From a virus (Duplodnaviria; Caudoviricetes): 64,000 bases of DNA. The stretch spans positions 77,979 to 141,978 of the IMG/VR virus record IMGVR_UViG_3300000203_000003; one strand, 5' to 3'. Within the stretch, counting starts at the first letter, position 1, and each line of letters opens with the position of its first letter. Shown here piece after piece: positions 58,669 to 64,000 of this stretch. The position numbers were made by a program, and so were the translations under genes. Below the pieces are notes generated by a model that saw only the letters and a list, made by a program, of their open reading frames with translations, made no database searches and was not told the DNA's origin.

Positions 58669-60213
58669 ATGACTCAAGTAAACTTAACCGCAACACAAAA
58701 TCCAGAATGGGCCTTATTTTTGCCGGCCTTATCTTCATTTTTTATATCTGGATTAGGCAAACAGCGTGAGGGCAATAACTATTTCGAGAAAGCAAGACTT
58801 CCCATTGGTATACCGGATACGGAAGTTCTAAACTTTCTCAATAGTAAACAGGCATTATTCCCATATAAATGGGCATTGTATAGTGCAGGCCATGCTGATT
58901 TAACTTCATACAAAACAAATCCTTCCGAGAGTATTGTCGTTAAGCGAGAGCCGGGTTCTTTTATTCTTGCTGACTCCGGCGGGTTTCAAATCCTTAAGGG
59001 GCAATGGCCGGCTGATTGGAAGGATCCTAACTGTCCTAAGGCCATGCAGAAACGACGGGAAGTATTAGCCTGGATGGAAGATATTGCGGATTACGGCATG
59101 TGTCTTGATATTCCGTCTCAATCGCTTCGCACATACGGGATGAAGGATAAGAACGGTAACTCGCTACATGGCATCAAGACTATTCAAGACGCTATCACTG
59201 CCACGCACATCAACAATGAATACTTTATCGCAAACAGAACGGGTAAGTGTAAGTTTCTGAATGTGATGCAGGGACTGAACCACACTCAAAGCGAGTCATG
59301 GTATCAGGAGATGAAGAAGTATTGTGACCCAAAGGTCTATCCCGATAATCACTTCAACGGTTGGGCTATGGGAGGTCAGACTAAGATTGACATTCATCTG
59401 TTCCTTATCCGGCTGATTAACTTTATCCACGATGGATTGTTAGAACAAGGTAAGCATGACTGGATTCACTGCCTGGGCACATCCATAGTAGAATACGCTG
59501 TGTTATTCAGTGATGTTCAACGTGCTGTCCGAAAGTATCACAACCCTGATCTGACTATCAGCTTCGACTGTGCCAGCCCGTTCTTCGGTGCTGCTAAGGG
59601 TCTGGCTTACAACAATAACTCTTTCAAGCACGACAAGAAATGGACCTACTCCATGGAAAAGACCGCGGAGAAGAAGGCTTACTCAACAGATACACGGAAG
59701 TTTCGTGATGCTGTTTTGGCTGAAGGTATCCATAAAGCCTTTACAGACAGTCCAATAACTGATAAAATGTTACTTAAGGATCTTTGCTATCGTGGCAAAG
59801 GCTTTCTAGGACAACACGGTAAAGAAACAAAAACATCTTGGGACACTCTCAGCTATACGCTGATTCAGGGTCACAATGTTTATCAGCATATGGTCGCAGT
59901 TCAAGAAGCAAATCGTCAATATGATTCAGGTGTCATCCCAAGTATGTTGATGAACAACACCTTCGAACACGTTGAAATTGGGAAGATCATCGATGAAGTC
60001 TTTGCCCAGAAAGATCGTCAAAAATCTCTTGATCTAGTTGAGAAGTATTCCAGGTATTGGATGCAGTTCAAAGCTGGTCAAGGATTCAGCGGTAAAAAGA
60101 CAGTAAACTCACTGACACAATTCAACGCTCTGTTCACCGAAGAAGCTGAACCAGAAATTGACGAAGTTATTGAAGATGCTGATGATGCCATCACAGAGGC
60201 TTTAGGAGAATAA
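58669..60213 (+). CDS. dpdA: TGT-fold transglycosylase, probably DpdA-like 7-deazaguanine DNA-insertion enzyme
   Basis: ADSGGFQ, CLDIP, NVMQG, WAMGG, IHCLG, SFDCASP; QueD-like gene nearby. Confidence 0.7.
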   Translation: MTQVNLTATQNPEWALFLPALSSFFISGLGKQREGNNYFEKARLPIGIPDTEVLNFLNSKQALFPYKWALYSAGHADLTSYKTNPSESIVVKREPGSFILADSGGFQILKGQWPADWKDPNCPKAMQKRREVLAWMEDIADYGMCLDIPSQSLRTYGMKDKNGNSLHGIKTIQDAITATHINNEYFIANRTGKCKFLNVMQGLNHTQSESWYQEMKKYCDPKVYPDNHFNGWAMGGQTKIDIHLFLIRLINFIHDGLLEQGKHDWIHCLGTSIVEYAVLFSDVQRAVRKYHNPDLTISFDCASPFFGAAKGLAYNNNSFKHDKKWTYSMEKTAEKKAYSTDTRKFRDAVLAEGIHKAFTDSPITDKMLLKDLCYRGKGFLGQHGKETKTSWDTLSYTLIQGHNVYQHMVAVQEANRQYDSGVIPSMLMNNTFEHVEIGKIIDEVFAQKDRQKSLDLVEKYSRYWMQFKAGQGFSGKKTVNSLTQFNALFTEEAEPEIDEVIEDADDAITEALGE

Positions 60214-60214
60214 C

Positions 60215-60415
60215 ATGGGCGATGTAGTGGAAATTGACAATCAAGAGGACCTGATAACAATGACTACAGGAGCATCCGGTGAGATGCTTCGCGTGACAAA
60301 AACTGGGTTTTATGTTCGCGGCGTCCGAGTAGAACAAGATGCGAGGGAAGCAGAGAATGTTTATAATGCTTTCCATCAATGGCTCACATGGGCTGCACTA
60401 ACAAGGAATTACTAA
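60215..60415 (+). CDS. Hypothetical protein
   Basis: SD AGGAG; coupled. Confidence 0.5.
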   Translation: MGDVVEIDNQEDLITMTTGASGEMLRVTKTGFYVRGVRVEQDAREAENVYNAFHQWLTWAALTRNY

Positions 60416-60852
60416 TGGATCAGCGAACTCAAGCACTTGTAGACAAAATAAACAAGGTAAGTGACACCGCAACGCGCACTATCTTTGTGACATTTCAGAA
60501 AGAGGGGATTCATTTCTACCCGTTAGCAGCGGTTCACCCCGACCTTGCTGATGTAAGTTTTCTTGGCTCCCCACATCGACATATTTTTCATTTTCGTGTG
60601 GACATTCAGGTTGAACACTCCAACAGGGACATAGAATTCATCCAATTTAAACGTTGGTGCGAATCGCTCTACAGCGAAAAAGCACTTGAACTGGATTACA
60701 AAAGCTGTGAAATGATTAGCGATGATCTATATAAACAAATCGCTATTCGTTACCCAGACCGTGATGTTCAAATCGAAGTCTCCGAAGACGGCGAGAACGG
60801 CAGCACGATTTTTTATAACAGGTTTCGGCCTATTCAACAACTCGCTATTTAA
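60415..60852 (+). CDS. QueD-like (6-pyruvoyl-tetrahydropterin synthase fold) protein
   Basis: EGIH.YP, PHRHIFHF, RDIEFI, SCEMI, VSEDGENG. Confidence 0.7.
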   Translation: MDQRTQALVDKINKVSDTATRTIFVTFQKEGIHFYPLAAVHPDLADVSFLGSPHRHIFHFRVDIQVEHSNRDIEFIQFKRWCESLYSEKALELDYKSCEMISDDLYKQIAIRYPDRDVQIEVSEDGENGSTIFYNRFRPIQQLAI

Positions 60853-60863
60853 AGGAAAACAAA

Positions 60864-61070
60864 ATGGCAAAGATCGCTTATCAATCTAACCCGCGTGTCG
60901 CTCAAATCTTTGAGGACTTGGAAAACTATCTGGAGTTCTGTAAGGACTTCGGGTATCGGTATGATGAGGCAACCCTATATGATATGCGCGATTATGCGTA
61001 TCGTCAGTTTCAGAAGGCGGTGACTGGCAAGTTCCCGCGCGACTGCTGGGTAGAAAATGCTCGTCCATAA
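60864..61070 (+). CDS. Hypothetical protein
   Basis: SD AAGGA. Confidence 0.55.
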   Translation: MAKIAYQSNPRVAQIFEDLENYLEFCKDFGYRYDEATLYDMRDYAYRQFQKAVTGKFPRDCWVENARP

Positions 61071-61818
61071 AGACTGCATAGTAGTTGTGTCTGGGGGGTT
61101 CGATCCTGTTCACTCTGGACATATTCTGTTGCTTAACTCTGCAAAGACTTACGGCAACTATCTTATCGTCGGAGTCAACAGCGATGAATGGCTGGTGCGT
61201 AAGAAGGGCAGAGCATTTTTGCCTTGGTCCGAGCGTTCTGCTATTGTCAACAACATGAAAGCTGTTGATGAAGTAATGGCATTCGATGATAGTGATGGGT
61301 CGGCGTGTGACTTGCTTGAAAAAGTCAAAGCATTTTATCCCGGCTTTCCGATCATATTCGCAAACGGCGGAGACCGGACAGCGGTGAACATTCCCGAAAT
61401 GCGAATTAAGGATATCATCTTCAAGTTTGGCATCGGCGGTGAGAACAAAATAAATAGTTCGTCCTGGATTCTTGAAGAATGGAAAAGCCCTAAAACATTC
61501 CGCCAATGGGGTTACTATCGTGTGCTACATGAAGCACCGGGATACAAAGTAAAAGAGTTAGTCATTGAACCTGGTAAGATGTTGTCGATGCAACGTCACT
61601 TTAAGCGTGAAGAACATTGGTACATCCTTAAAGGTGAATGTGACATTGGTACAACATATTTAGATATGTTCCAGCGTATTAATATTCGTGAAAACGAAAC
61701 TTACAACATCGGCAAAGAAGTATGGCATCAGGGTCAGAATAACACTGACACTAATGTTCATATCCTTGAAGTTCAATACGGCACCGAATGTATAGAAGAG
61801 GACATAGAAAGAAAATGA
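61057..61818 (+). CDS. Cytidylyltransferase-like (HIGH) + cupin (mannose-6-phosphate isomerase type) fusion
   Basis: SGGFDPVHSGH, GVNSD, ANGGDR, NSSS; R.WG.Y.VL, LSMQRH.KR.EHW, ILEVQYG...EEDIER. Confidence 0.85.
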   Translation: MLVHKDCIVVVSGGFDPVHSGHILLLNSAKTYGNYLIVGVNSDEWLVRKKGRAFLPWSERSAIVNNMKAVDEVMAFDDSDGSACDLLEKVKAFYPGFPIIFANGGDRTAVNIPEMRIKDIIFKFGIGGENKINSSSWILEEWKSPKTFRQWGYYRVLHEAPGYKVKELVIEPGKMLSMQRHFKREEHWYILKGECDIGTTYLDMFQRINIRENETYNIGKEVWHQGQNNTDTNVHILEVQYGTECIEEDIERK

Positions 61819-61853
61819 GAAAACTATTCTACATGGGGCTGGGGCCTACTTAG
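61815..61853 (+). pseudogene. Orphaned original 5' end of the downstream glycosyltransferase
   Basis: MRKLFYMGLGPT* versus MRKLIYMGLEKY at 62678. Confidence 0.75.
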
Positions 61854-61907
61854 TATTAGAACTATATAAAAAACAATACCGGTGATAAATACTATATAGG
61901 AGCATAT

Positions 61908-62690
61908 ATGAGTAAACAATCACCGGATCATGTTGAAAAACGAATTAGTAAAATCCGAGGTGTTAAAAAAGGTCCTTCGCCATTTAGAAAAACAACTGAA
62001 CAGATAATCACAGAAATACAATCTTATCATGGTGATAGGTATTTGTTGGATCGGGTTCAATATGTCAACTGTTCTACTAAAATTGAAGTTGGCTGCCGTG
62101 AGCATGGATATTTCTTTAAATGGCCAAATGACATGAAGGGTGGAGGATGTCCCAAATGCGGCGGAAGTCTCAAAAAGACTCCCGACGAATTTTTAGAACA
62201 AATGCACCAGTTGTTTCCTGAATATGAATTTAAAACTCCATATAAAAACGCTCATACGAAAATAGAAGTAGTATGCCCGGATCATGGACCATTTATGATT
62301 AAACCTAACACTTTACTATCAGGAACAGGATGCGGGACATGTGGATACGAGAAGGCCTGGCTAACTAAAATAGCGAATGGACAATGTCGTGATCCCAGTG
62401 AGATAGGTGAGCATGAGTTATACCGAAAAGCAGTGTGGCGAGAAACAAACCAAAGCTTTAATAAATATTTCGCCGGTCAACAACGAAACAAGGACATTCA
62501 TTTGGACCATATTGTATCCATAACTGACGGCTGGGCGAATAAGATACCCGCAGAGATTATAGGATCGGTGATAAATCTGCGACTTATTAATGGAATTGAC
62601 AATAGAAGGAAGTCCAATAAGAGTGACATGACAGTAGAAATGCTGTATAATAAGTTTAAAGAATTTAAGGAACAACTATGCGAAAATTGA
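61908..62690 (+). CDS. Free-standing Zn-ribbon/HNH-like endonuclease
   Basis: Two C..HG.F...P......GC..C repeats; HLDHIVSI..NLRLI...N..K; late promoter and SD. Confidence 0.8.
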   Translation: MSKQSPDHVEKRISKIRGVKKGPSPFRKTTEQIITEIQSYHGDRYLLDRVQYVNCSTKIEVGCREHGYFFKWPNDMKGGGCPKCGGSLKKTPDEFLEQMHQLFPEYEFKTPYKNAHTKIEVVCPDHGPFMIKPNTLLSGTGCGTCGYEKAWLTKIANGQCRDPSEIGEHELYRKAVWRETNQSFNKYFAGQQRNKDIHLDHIVSITDGWANKIPAEIIGSVINLRLINGIDNRRKSNKSDMTVEMLYNKFKEFKEQLCEN

Positions 62691-63850
62691 TATATATGGG
62701 ACTCGAAAAATATAAGAGTAGATACACCTTTCAACTCCAAGACTGGAATGAAGCAGTATTCAAGAGTCGTAACATTGATTATATTCTGGTGCCGGGGGAG
62801 ACTCTCAGTAACGATCAAGCTATTGTAACGGGACAAGTTCTGGACGCGCATGGTCGTAGTTATTTCGGCATGAGTCAGTTGATGAATCTGGTCAAACTGA
62901 TGAAAGCAGGAGAGGTGACAAGCGATGATGTGGTCTACTTTGAGGATATGTTTCAACCGGGCATGGAGTCTTTACCCTATATACTTCAACAGGTCGACCA
63001 ATCAAAGCGCCCTCGGATTTATGTTCGCTGTCTTGCTCAGTCCATTGATCCTGATGATTTTGTTCATGTATGGGGTATGTCTAAGTGGATGGGTCATTAT
63101 GAAAAGATGTTGGACTCGTTTGTAGATGGCGTACTTGCGACCAACGAAGAAATGGTCGCCCATATGAAGATTGCGGGATGGGAAGCGCCTATCTACAATA
63201 TCAGTGGTCTGGCATTCGGCAAGGCAGAAGTGCTTAGTCGAGTGAAAGAAGTTATCCCGTTTGATGAACGTCTACCTCGCGTAGCTTTCTCAGCACGATG
63301 GGATCAGGAGAAGCAACCTGACTTCTACATGGACATGATCGAAGCATGGCATCAGGAGTTGCCCAACTCAAAAGTTGAGTTCTGTGTGTTCAGCGGTGGC
63401 AAGTTGAAGTCTAACAATGAATCTTACATGGCACGAACCCGCGACATGCAGGCGCGTGGTATGCTGACTGTATACGAAGACTTGGAAAAGAATCAATACT
63501 ATGATCTGCTGAACAATACCCGCGTAGTATTCAACTGTGCGCTTCAAGATTGGGTCAGCAACACCGTAAGTGAAGGTGATACTCTTGGCTGCAACGTTCT
63601 GTATCCTGCGTATCGTTCGTTCCCAGAAACATTCGCCAATGACTTTGAACGACTATATGTTCCCTGGAGCATCCCTGATGCGATGAACAAGCTGTATGGT
63701 CTGCTGTCATACCCGCATGAGAACATGGGCAAGATCAGCGATTACAATGACAAAACCATTGATCGTATCTGTGATATTTTTGAAGGCGACAACTCAGGCC
63801 TGCGAATGACTAAAGATTATCGGAAGTATACCCGTGAATCAAAGTATTGA
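62678..63850 (+). CDS. GT-B fold glycosyltransferase
   Basis: FSARWDQEKQP, Y..LL...V.FN.A.QD....T..E....GC..L.P....FPE. Confidence 0.7.
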   Translation: MRKLIYMGLEKYKSRYTFQLQDWNEAVFKSRNIDYILVPGETLSNDQAIVTGQVLDAHGRSYFGMSQLMNLVKLMKAGEVTSDDVVYFEDMFQPGMESLPYILQQVDQSKRPRIYVRCLAQSIDPDDFVHVWGMSKWMGHYEKMLDSFVDGVLATNEEMVAHMKIAGWEAPIYNISGLAFGKAEVLSRVKEVIPFDERLPRVAFSARWDQEKQPDFYMDMIEAWHQELPNSKVEFCVFSGGKLKSNNESYMARTRDMQARGMLTVYEDLEKNQYYDLLNNTRVVFNCALQDWVSNTVSEGDTLGCNVLYPAYRSFPETFANDFERLYVPWSIPDAMNKLYGLLSYPHENMGKISDYNDKTIDRICDIFEGDNSGLRMTKDYRKYTRESKY

Positions 63851-64000
63851 ACCAATCATTCTCGTTAATGTAACAAGTGACTCTGGTCTTGTTCTGGCCA
63901 GAGCATTTCATTCAGCGGGTCGACCAGTTATCGGTGTTATCTCTTCGGTTGATAAAGACTTTGACAAGGACATATCCTGTCTGACAGAGTTATTAGTCGG
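63834..64000 (+). CDS. Partial ORF with degenerate Rossmann-like start (possibly epimerase-related)
   Basis: From GTG 63834: ..IILVNVTSDSGLVLARAFHSAGRPVIGV..; open to the window end. Confidence 0.35.
   Translation, partial: MNQSIEPIILVNVTSDSGLVLARAFHSAGRPVIGVISSVDKDFDKDISCLTELLV

Follow-up and report, generated by a model that had tools for sequence, protein, structure and literature searches.

A free-standing, probable HNH endonuclease gene at the 5' end of a phage glycosyltransferase gene, accompanied by a replacement gene start

An IMG/VR virus record of 142 kb (IMGVR_UViG_3300000203_000003; Duplodnaviria, Caudoviricetes) ends with a stretch of 64 kb, positions 77,979 to 141,978, which is referred to here as the window and contains a glycosyltransferase (GT) gene whose start is present twice, once on each side of an open reading frame (ORF) for a nuclease of 260 amino acids. 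This ORF is probably a free-standing homing endonuclease gene (HEG) of the HNH type that occupies a fixed site in the GT gene, around codon 13 at its 5' end, and spreads by intronless homing that replaces the 5' end of the invaded gene. The first of the two starts is the native one, left as a dead stub; the second is linked to the HEG, and the GT gene that it opens is a mosaic of two allele types. The same arrangement recurs, at the same site, in four diverged lineages of the nuclease and across many uncultured phages.

Two starts of one gene

The gene upstream of the nuclease encodes a cytidylyltransferase-cupin protein, and its TGA is overlapped by the ATG at 61815 (ATGA). From this ATG a frame of 12 codons runs to a TAG at 61851-61853. 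The HEG follows, and its 3' end is overlapped for 13 nucleotides (nt) by the ORF of the intact GT, which starts at 62678 and has a Shine-Dalgarno (SD) site of its own inside the HEG. Eight of the first nine residues agree between the stub and this replacement start, five of the eight being encoded by different codons. A first-pass annotation of the sequence had described this layout of stub, ATGA coupling, nuclease and second start with its SD site, and the description stands when it is read base for base. The extent of the resemblance was put there at nine residues, which do agree as stated; in fact it runs to about codon 12, apart from the loss of a single base, and next to it lies an older remnant in a more advanced state of decay (Table 1).

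In a six-frame scan of the window, only these two 9-mers reach a match of at least 6/9 to the GT start, and in a shuffle control (n = 20) 19 of the shuffles peaked at 5/9 or less and one at 7/9; a chance resemblance of the two starts is excluded. An assembly artefact was also considered, and is ruled out by the recurrence of the arrangement in independent assemblies.

A scan of IMG/VR returned 379 GT loci, 80 of which were kept for comparison. Loci are designated here by L numbers, and the tallies of loci refer to fetched records, some contigs having been fetched more than once, with overlaps. In the two closest HEG-free relatives among those kept, L003 (91% amino acid identity) and L004, a start of the stub type runs straight into the GT body, and the upstream gene and its junction are the same as in the window. 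The ATGA overlap is present in both, and the stub is therefore the native GT start, which is what the first-pass annotation had expected nuclease-free relatives to reveal. Remnant A, as the stub is called in Table 1, is identical to the L004 start at about 33 of 36 nt, counted by eye.

Codons 10-12 distinguish the alleles. They read E-P-Y in 76 HEG-free records, E-K-Y in 19 HEG-linked records, which make up the two main nuclease lineages in full, and E-K-Y in a further three HEG-free records, which resemble short conversion patches. All 76 of the nuclease-free records that lack the diagnostic substitution have a start of the stub type; nuclease-free alleles matching the second version, the outcome named beforehand as contrary to the claim, were not what was found. 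It was also considered whether the E-P-Y alleles could be deletion products between the two repeats, and this is ruled out, since such products should keep E-K-Y, like L011, L052 and L054. The insertion, where present, always lies at GT codon 12-14, and this presence or absence at a fixed site is the pattern by which homing endonuclease genes are recognised.

A mosaic glycosyltransferase gene

When the window start is compared with 52 distinct HEG-free starts, bases not seen in the latter occur only at nt 13, 31, 32 and 40, together with a synonymous one at nt 60. The corresponding substitutions, which affect otherwise invariant bases in the surroundings of the insertion point, are F/Y5I (nt 13), P11K (nt 31-32) and A14S (nt 40), the last of them falling in the codon after replacement codons 1-13. 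Across the HEG-linked starts, the bases absent from these 52 HEG-free starts cluster at nt 7-42, and a handful of others, all synonymous, lie at nt 53-60. What sets the nuclease-linked starts apart is a small number of mostly non-synonymous changes, arranged in lineage-specific sets (K11+S14, K11+V13, N8+Q13 and W5+C7). The replacement start travels with the HEG, the same type being found in L023, L084, L088 and L091-094 and a related type in the other HEG lineages.

The codon differences between the two starts had initially been interpreted as a purposeful synonymous recoding that would protect the new start from cleavage. This part of the idea has to be abandoned. GT alleles are about 30% divergent in DNA overall, so that the agreement of the stub with the new start at 19 of 27 bases is the ordinary distance between alleles. 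Recoding as an immunity device is ruled out because every synonymous variant in the new start, like its remaining differences from the stub apart from the bases listed above, is also present among HEG-free alleles.

The GT gene of the window is composed of successive parts: its first ~60-90 nt are clearly of the HEG-linked type, the sequence up to about nt 470 leans towards the donor, and the remainder is L003-like. Among the positions that distinguish the HEG-free L003 from the HEG-linked L023, the first 20 all have the L023 base in the window. As far as nt ~470, 73 sites agree with L023 and 30 with L003, and beyond that point the numbers are 33 and 182 (Fisher p = 2e-22), neither L023 nor L003 being the true parent of the window GT. 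The 5' end of the gene has clearly come in with the nuclease. The earlier proposal that the cassette carries a replacement start therefore holds as far as the linkage is concerned, since the start travels with the HEG, and has to be corrected as regards its size, the imported piece being longer than nine codons, with a donor-leaning tract up to about nt 470. The mosaic gene and the start type proper to each HEG lineage correspond to the co-conversion of flanking sequence that characterises homing endonuclease genes.

Recurrence at one site in four nuclease lineages

A protein search retrieved 16 close HEG homologues, with 59-100% identity, as well as more distant ones, on contigs taken from IMG/VR, JGI, ENA, Logan and TARA assemblies. 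Every homologue looked up adjoins the 5' end of this GT, and the gene upstream of the HEG varies (cupin gene, an ORF of 68 amino acids, a PRA-PH-like gene and others). According to their identity to the window HEG, these nucleases fall into lineage 1 (84-100%; window, L023, L088 and L091-094), lineage 2 (66-70%; L025 and L095-104), lineage 3 (49%; L105-107, marine) and lineage 4 (45%; L108-110).

All HEG loci with visible upstream DNA contain a GT-start remnant. It breaks off at codon 12-14, where conserved cassette sequence takes over. This sequence includes GATAAATA, with TATAAATA / CATAAATA in its place in two distant lineages. The remnants are fresh in L102, L105 and L108, and decayed, with frameshifts and stops, in L025, L091, L095 and L100. 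At L097 (2480-2606), two GT-start remnants stand in tandem 5' of the HEG, one fresh and one decayed, which can be taken as evidence of repeated invasion with a non-homologous left junction. The window is layered as well, its fresh remnant being followed directly by the older one (remnant B in Table 1). L091 has the same layout and the same older remnant, a shorter form of which appears in L025, L095, L097 and L100 when the regions preceding the HEG are aligned.

The 5' part of a remnant matches the local HEG-free allele: that of L091 is close to L061-063, which have the same upstream gene, and that of L102 is close to L060. This indicates that the left junction has been formed repeatedly in, or at the end of, these 39 nt. 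It would be formed sometimes through short homology to the donor's remnant and sometimes non-homologously, the latter giving rise to stacked remnants.

In several lineage-2 loci (L095, 2501-3358; L097, 2501-3385; proteins P0006, P0008, P0011, P0013 and P0016), the HEG frame is open upstream across the decayed remnant. The open frame of L095 begins with the ATG of the remnant itself, directly next to the stop codon of the upstream gene. The lineage-2 nuclease may borrow the old translation start of the GT; alternatively, the gene callers may just have chosen the longest ORF.

The nuclease

The 260-residue protein can be described as a homing endonuclease with a zinc-ribbon part and an HNH part, the catalytic assignment being moderately supported. 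Two zinc-ribbon repeats (CxxH...CxxC) occupy residues ~59-85 and 119-146, and an HNH / His-Me finger domain lies at the C-terminus (~195-238). In the T5orf172 homing endonucleases of phages, it is repeats of this kind that bind DNA (PMC10448857). The matches to PHROG 681 and 559 are in the zinc-ribbon part; that to PHROG 559, a family named 'HNH endonuclease', covers residues 23-166, that is, the zinc-ribbon region rather than the catalytic one. PF05265 (DUF723) is among the precomputed annotations of 46 of 46 HEG homologues, and our own hmmscan of the window protein gave weak values (E = 0.96 for DUF723 and 0.055 for CapR, PF21817). On the catalytic side, the Pfam match is to GmrSD_C alone (E = 0.028; 14.7 bits, below the cut-off of 23).

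Within 20 homologues, H198, D200, H201, N223 and N232 are invariant, forming an H-x-D-H ... N ... N motif, as are the zinc-ligand residues C63, H66, C81 and C84. The nuclease has the look of an active enzyme: its homologues have retained an intact ORF, and neither the HNH residues nor the zinc ligands vary. A structural model (pLDDT 83) places strands at 197-201 and 224-228 and a helix at 229-235, and also contains two repeated hairpin-helix units. The best fold match according to VIA-align is the Gme HNH nicking endonuclease, with a modest score (Z 5.2 over 63 residues, rmsd 3.8), and further matches, also modest, are to GVE2 HNH, BrxU and Cas9 HNH. A Foldseek search with the whole model gave no match at E <= 0.001, with weak rows for Cas9 HNH only, and a sequence search of the PDB with the nuclease gave nothing meaningful. 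The model would thus contain the beta-beta-alpha-metal core, with its catalytic His and Asn/His ligands, by which HNH enzymes are defined, at modest scores. No paralogues of the HEG were found in the record to which the window belongs.

Decay, converted alleles and possible regulatory signals

Some loci have lost most of the element. L084 is left with the final 120 nt of the HEG (93% identity to window 62571-62690) and with the replacement start. In L074 (3934-4003), a remnant ending at codon 13 is followed by the last ~27 nt of an L108-type HEG and by a replacement start with W5 and C7. The surviving piece of HEG bears the Shine-Dalgarno site of the GT in both cases, and the 120 nt kept in L084 include the 11/12 sigma-70-like match at 62623-62651, which may act as a promoter; such matches are not enriched across the region as a whole. 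The retained 3' ends recall the embedded promoters that favour retention of the seg/mob genes of T4 (PMC2988022).

At the other end of the cassette, GATAAATA resembles a motif found upstream of many window genes, ATAAATA occurring 33 times against 12.7 expected and often just 5' of start codons. This suggests late expression, as in T4, from GATAAATA as a putative promoter.

Locus L011, which has no HEG, is 96-100% identical to the HEG-free L008 over nt 46-630, but within its first 48 nt about 12 positions, by a count made by eye, have changed to the HEG-linked type. L011 would correspond to a short repair patch centred on the proposed site. Its pattern is what could be expected if a break near codons 10-14 were repaired using the donor's functional copy alone and, equally, from a deletion between the repeats.

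Proposed mechanism

It is proposed that the mobile unit comprises the late-type promoter motif and the SD site of the HEG, the HEG itself, the SD site (and possibly a promoter) within its 3' end, and the replacement GT codons 1-13, which in the donor would be continuous with the GT body. In a mixed infection, the nuclease would cut a HEG-free GT allele near codons 10-14. The right-hand end would then invade the donor GT, and synthesis would copy the 5' part of the donor GT, the replacement start and the HEG, after which the left end would be joined, either within short homology to the donor's remnant or non-homologously. As a result, the first 12-13 codons of the recipient would remain as a dead stub coupled to the upstream gene, and the GT would be translated from the imported start. 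Self-cleavage would be avoided through the interruption of the stub at the site and the alteration of the imported start (P11K, A14S and position 5 in the window), and the GT would be spared by the start codon, the Shine-Dalgarno site and perhaps the promoter that the element supplies.

The cut probably lies near GT nt 25-45, since four independent patterns point to this interval: insertion at a common point, the clustering of the substitutions that are unique, the patch in L011 and the ends of the stacked remnants. That the protein cleaves this gene at all, where precisely it would do so, and the presumed immunity of the new start are drawn from the same kind of comparison.

A further step, which we consider possible and put at somewhat under an even chance, is that the replacement start belongs to the element as a heritable organ that co-evolves with it, and is more than a by-product. 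According to this view, the substitutions that each lineage carries in GT codons 5-14 would match the recognition sequence of its own nuclease, and the GT would depend on signals in the 3' end of the cassette. With the Shine-Dalgarno site and a putative promoter of the GT located in the HEG 3' end, the host gene would be dependent on the cassette, and dead elements would leave behind this 3' end and an immune start.

Several points weigh against the homing scheme set out above, or restrict it. The HNH assignment consists of a motif and a modest fold score (Z 5.2), with a Pfam match below threshold. The loci compared are not phylogenetically independent, so that fewer events took place than the 76/19/3 tally would suggest. 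In its upstream DNA, L003 shares no more than 78-87% identity with the window, and hence no isogenic HEG-free genome is available; the donor-like tract has a patchy stretch from nt 60 to nt 470, and the true donor is a locus other than L023. The cut site and the immunity of the new start are based on comparative patterns only. Moreover, the cut may lie elsewhere than at codon 13, since for free-standing phage endonucleases, HNH enzymes included, a distance of tens to hundreds of nt between cut and insertion point is common.

Alternative explanations

The duplicated start could also be understood as a one-off accident, in which an ordinary intergenic HEG has left the stub as a scar of illegitimate repair and no heritable element exists. 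The seg/mob genes of T4 are in fact typically intergenic and cut a neighbouring gene, and non-homologous left junctions did occur, as the tandem remnants of L097 and the layered remnant of the window illustrate. However, a remnant that stops at codon 12-14 is present in nine of nine aligned locus types, which belong to four HEG lineages, and in none of them does the HEG abut the upstream gene without a remnant. The conservation of the remnant boundary and of the cassette sequence across lineages indicates an inherited, site-specific arrangement, and an accident is therefore unlikely. It is highly improbable that the stub is a genuine first exon, joined to the GT by a self-splicing intron or by translational bypass, even though HEGs in phage genes are often intron-borne and translation of the stub remains coupled to that of the upstream gene. 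No Rfam family was found at E <= 1 in 61500-63000, where a group I intron would have its ribozyme core around the HEG. Such an intron would also have an intact upstream exon, whereas in L025, L091, L095 and L100 the stub is frameshifted or stopped and cannot be an exon; furthermore, the second start is complete, has its own SD site and encodes a protein sequence conserved in every HEG-linked locus, a copy that splicing at codon 13-14 would make pointless.

Domestication of the nuclease, which would then have ceased to be a homing element and serve, for example, in competition between co-infecting phages or in regulation of the DNA-modification operon, would offer another reason for the arrangement, the start being kept for the sake of the GT's SD site and promoter in the HEG 3' end. 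This end does hold the SD site and the 11/12 promoter match, exactly this part is what was kept after HEG deletion in L084 and L074, and embedded promoters that favour retention have been described in T4. Against it, fresh remnants in differing contexts (L102, L105, L108 and the window) and the mosaic GT indicate recent and repeated invasion, and the loss of the HEG, together with HEG-free converted alleles (L011, L074 and L084), fits the usual cycle of invasion and decay. Domestication is compatible with homing but is not needed to account for the data, and as an explanation in its own right it is quite improbable. An end-replacing homing element is the reading that we retain.

The target gene and its neighbourhood

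The GT of 390 amino acids passes the threshold of no Pfam family and belongs to no PHROG family, and its assignment comes from its structure. The predicted model (pTM 0.70) has at least 500 Foldseek matches at E <= 0.001, the top one with E = 7.5e-10. The top matches are the GT of chlorovirus PBCV NY2A, PimA, BshA and OtsA, and the alpha-glucosyltransferase of T4 appears at rank 36. The two Rossmann-like domains thus match those of solved GT-B enzymes, the feature that defines this fold. In the model, residues 4-7 form the first strand and residues 8-16 the loop behind it, so the duplicated piece encodes the conserved beta1-loop of the N-terminal domain.

The only isolate with this GT is the kyanovirus Synechococcus phage BUCT-ZZ01 (63% amino acid identity), which is HEG-free and has a native-type start. 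A megablast search with 61000-64000 found no near-identical match in the phage collection. The coordinates of the features of the window locus are collected in Table 1.

Table 1. Features of the glycosyltransferase locus, in positions of the 64-kb window
Feature	Position	Strand	Basis
Upstream gene, cytidylyltransferase + cupin/mannose-6-P isomerase-like	61057..61818	+	ORF; Pfam PF01467 and PF01050
Remnant A: native GT start, codons 1 to ~12, dead stub	61815..61848	+	Frame closed by TAG 61851-61853
Remnant B: older, decayed GT codons ~9-13, apparently carried in with the cassette	61849..61874	+	Alignment of pre-HEG regions, nine loci
GATAAATA, T4-type late-promoter-like motif, 17 nt 5' of the HEG start codon	61884..61891	+	Kept in all four HEG lineages
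Shine-Dalgarno site AGGAG of the HEG	61898..61902	+	Sequence; 6 nt upstream of the HEG start codon
HEG, free-standing, 260 amino acids	61908..62690	+	Zinc-ribbon repeats and C-terminal HNH
Sigma-70-like promoter match, 11/12, inside the HEG 3' end	62623..62651	+	27 nt before the GT start
Shine-Dalgarno site AAGGA for the replacement GT start, inside the HEG ORF	62667..62671	+	Sequence
Replacement GT codons 1-13, brought with the HEG	62678..62716	+	Comparison with 52 distinct HEG-free starts
GT-B fold glycosyltransferase gene, intact, 390 amino acids	62678..63850	+	Mosaic sequence; Foldseek fold

The GT gene is part of a DNA-modification cluster (58669-64000), alongside an ORF of 514 amino acids, another of 157 and the cytidylyltransferase-cupin gene. 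The 514-residue ORF has no Pfam or PHROG family, and its label as TGT-fold/DpdA-like comes from the initial sequence-only reading, as does that of the 157-residue ORF as QueD-like. In BUCT-ZZ01 and other relatives, the cluster also has genes for FolE, QueE and a sugar epimerase. This set of genes suggests a glycosylated or otherwise elaborated 7-deazaguanine base.

The neighbourhood of the GT is a hotspot for HEGs. Between the QueD-like gene and the 68-residue ORF, endonuclease ORFs are found on the opposite strand in L084 (2004-2774, minus), L091/L092 (1279-2043, minus) and L097 (1420-2190, minus); one of them is HNH-like and apparently split in two, and the others combine DUF723 and T5orf172. 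In the HEG-bearing contig L093 (1244-2409), gene calling splits the GT that lies behind the HEG into two ORFs (239 and 141 amino acids), which may reflect a frameshifted GT or an assembly error.

Relation to known systems

Introns, inteins and intergenic sites are the textbook niches of homing endonucleases in or beside essential genes, to which a few cases of split genes have to be added. The closest precedents for the locus described here are the mobile endonuclease ORFs (mORFs) of fungal mitochondria, which make hybrid genes in atp6 of Allomyces macrogynus (Paquin, Laforest and Lang 1994, PNAS 91:11807) and in atp6, atp9, cox2 and nad3 of Glomus sp. (Beaudet et al. 2013, PMC3630166). As in these elements, an endonuclease ORF is located inside a conserved protein gene, being neither intron nor intein; a diverged in-frame copy of a gene end is imported, and the native end is left as a remnant that is closer to the allele of the relatives. 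The window element has the features that define an end-replacing element of this type, in mirror image: mORFs replace the C-terminus, whereas here it is the N-terminus, so that a start codon, an SD site and possibly a promoter are supplied as well. Mitochondrial mORF elements carry GIY-YIG or LAGLIDADG enzymes, unlike the zinc-ribbon and HNH protein found here. The host is a phage instead of an organelle, and four diverged nuclease lineages share one site. The splicing-free invasion of a coding target, as initially inferred from the sequence, is not new as a principle, having been described for fungal mitochondria.

Among phages, the free-standing SegF, SegG and MobE of T4 perform intronless homing in which markers on the flanks are co-converted (for reviews, see Edgell, Gibb and Belfort 2010, PMC2988022; Wilson and Edgell 2009, PMC2790892). 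The element shares with them a free-standing HEG beside a conserved gene, a HEG-less allele as the presumed target, co-converted flanks, middle/late-type promoters, and signals of the downstream gene embedded in the HEG. The T4 elements are intergenic and lack a duplicated gene end, whereas here the insertion is inside an ORF and the start is duplicated. Phage genes split by HEGs are also known, such as nrdA of Aeromonas phage Aeh1 (MobE), gene 60 of T4 (mobA) and gp43 of phage 25 (seg). They likewise involve insertion into a phage coding region without a splicing element, but they result in two functional polypeptides, while in the GT gene the upstream piece is discarded and replaced. Finally, the T5orf172 (GIY-YIG) homing endonucleases have CapR / DUF723 / DUF4397 zinc-finger repeats (Barth et al. 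2023, PMC10448857). The similarity resides in the repeated DUF723/CapR-like zinc-ribbon modules, presumed to be the DNA-binding part, and in the position of the genes at recombination boundaries beside important phage genes, whereas the catalytic domain here is a C-terminal HNH.

Significance

In the phage literature searched, intergenic, intron- or intein-borne and gene-splitting HEGs are described, and no replacement gene start borne by a HEG was found. The locus represents a fourth route in phages, in which a gene end is discarded and its replacement is brought along, a route that in the literature found has been described only for fungal mitochondria. Its value comes less from the principle than from how deep the natural series is. 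This series is unusually complete, as it includes fresh invasions, layered remnants, decayed or deleted nucleases and HEG-free alleles with a short converted patch; it narrows the likely recognition site to ~35 bp and names candidate immunity substitutions. If the start does co-evolve with its nuclease, it would provide a natural series in which the joint change of homing-endonuclease specificity and immunity mutations can be read.

There are also consequences for the reading of phage genomes. Short 'orphan' ORFs coupled to upstream genes can be stubs of this kind, and genes beside HEGs can be chimeras, leading to misleading phylogenies. Since the target encodes a GT-B enzyme and belongs to a cluster for 7-deazaguanine DNA modification, the gene whose alleles the element may shuffle is one of relevance to anti-restriction.

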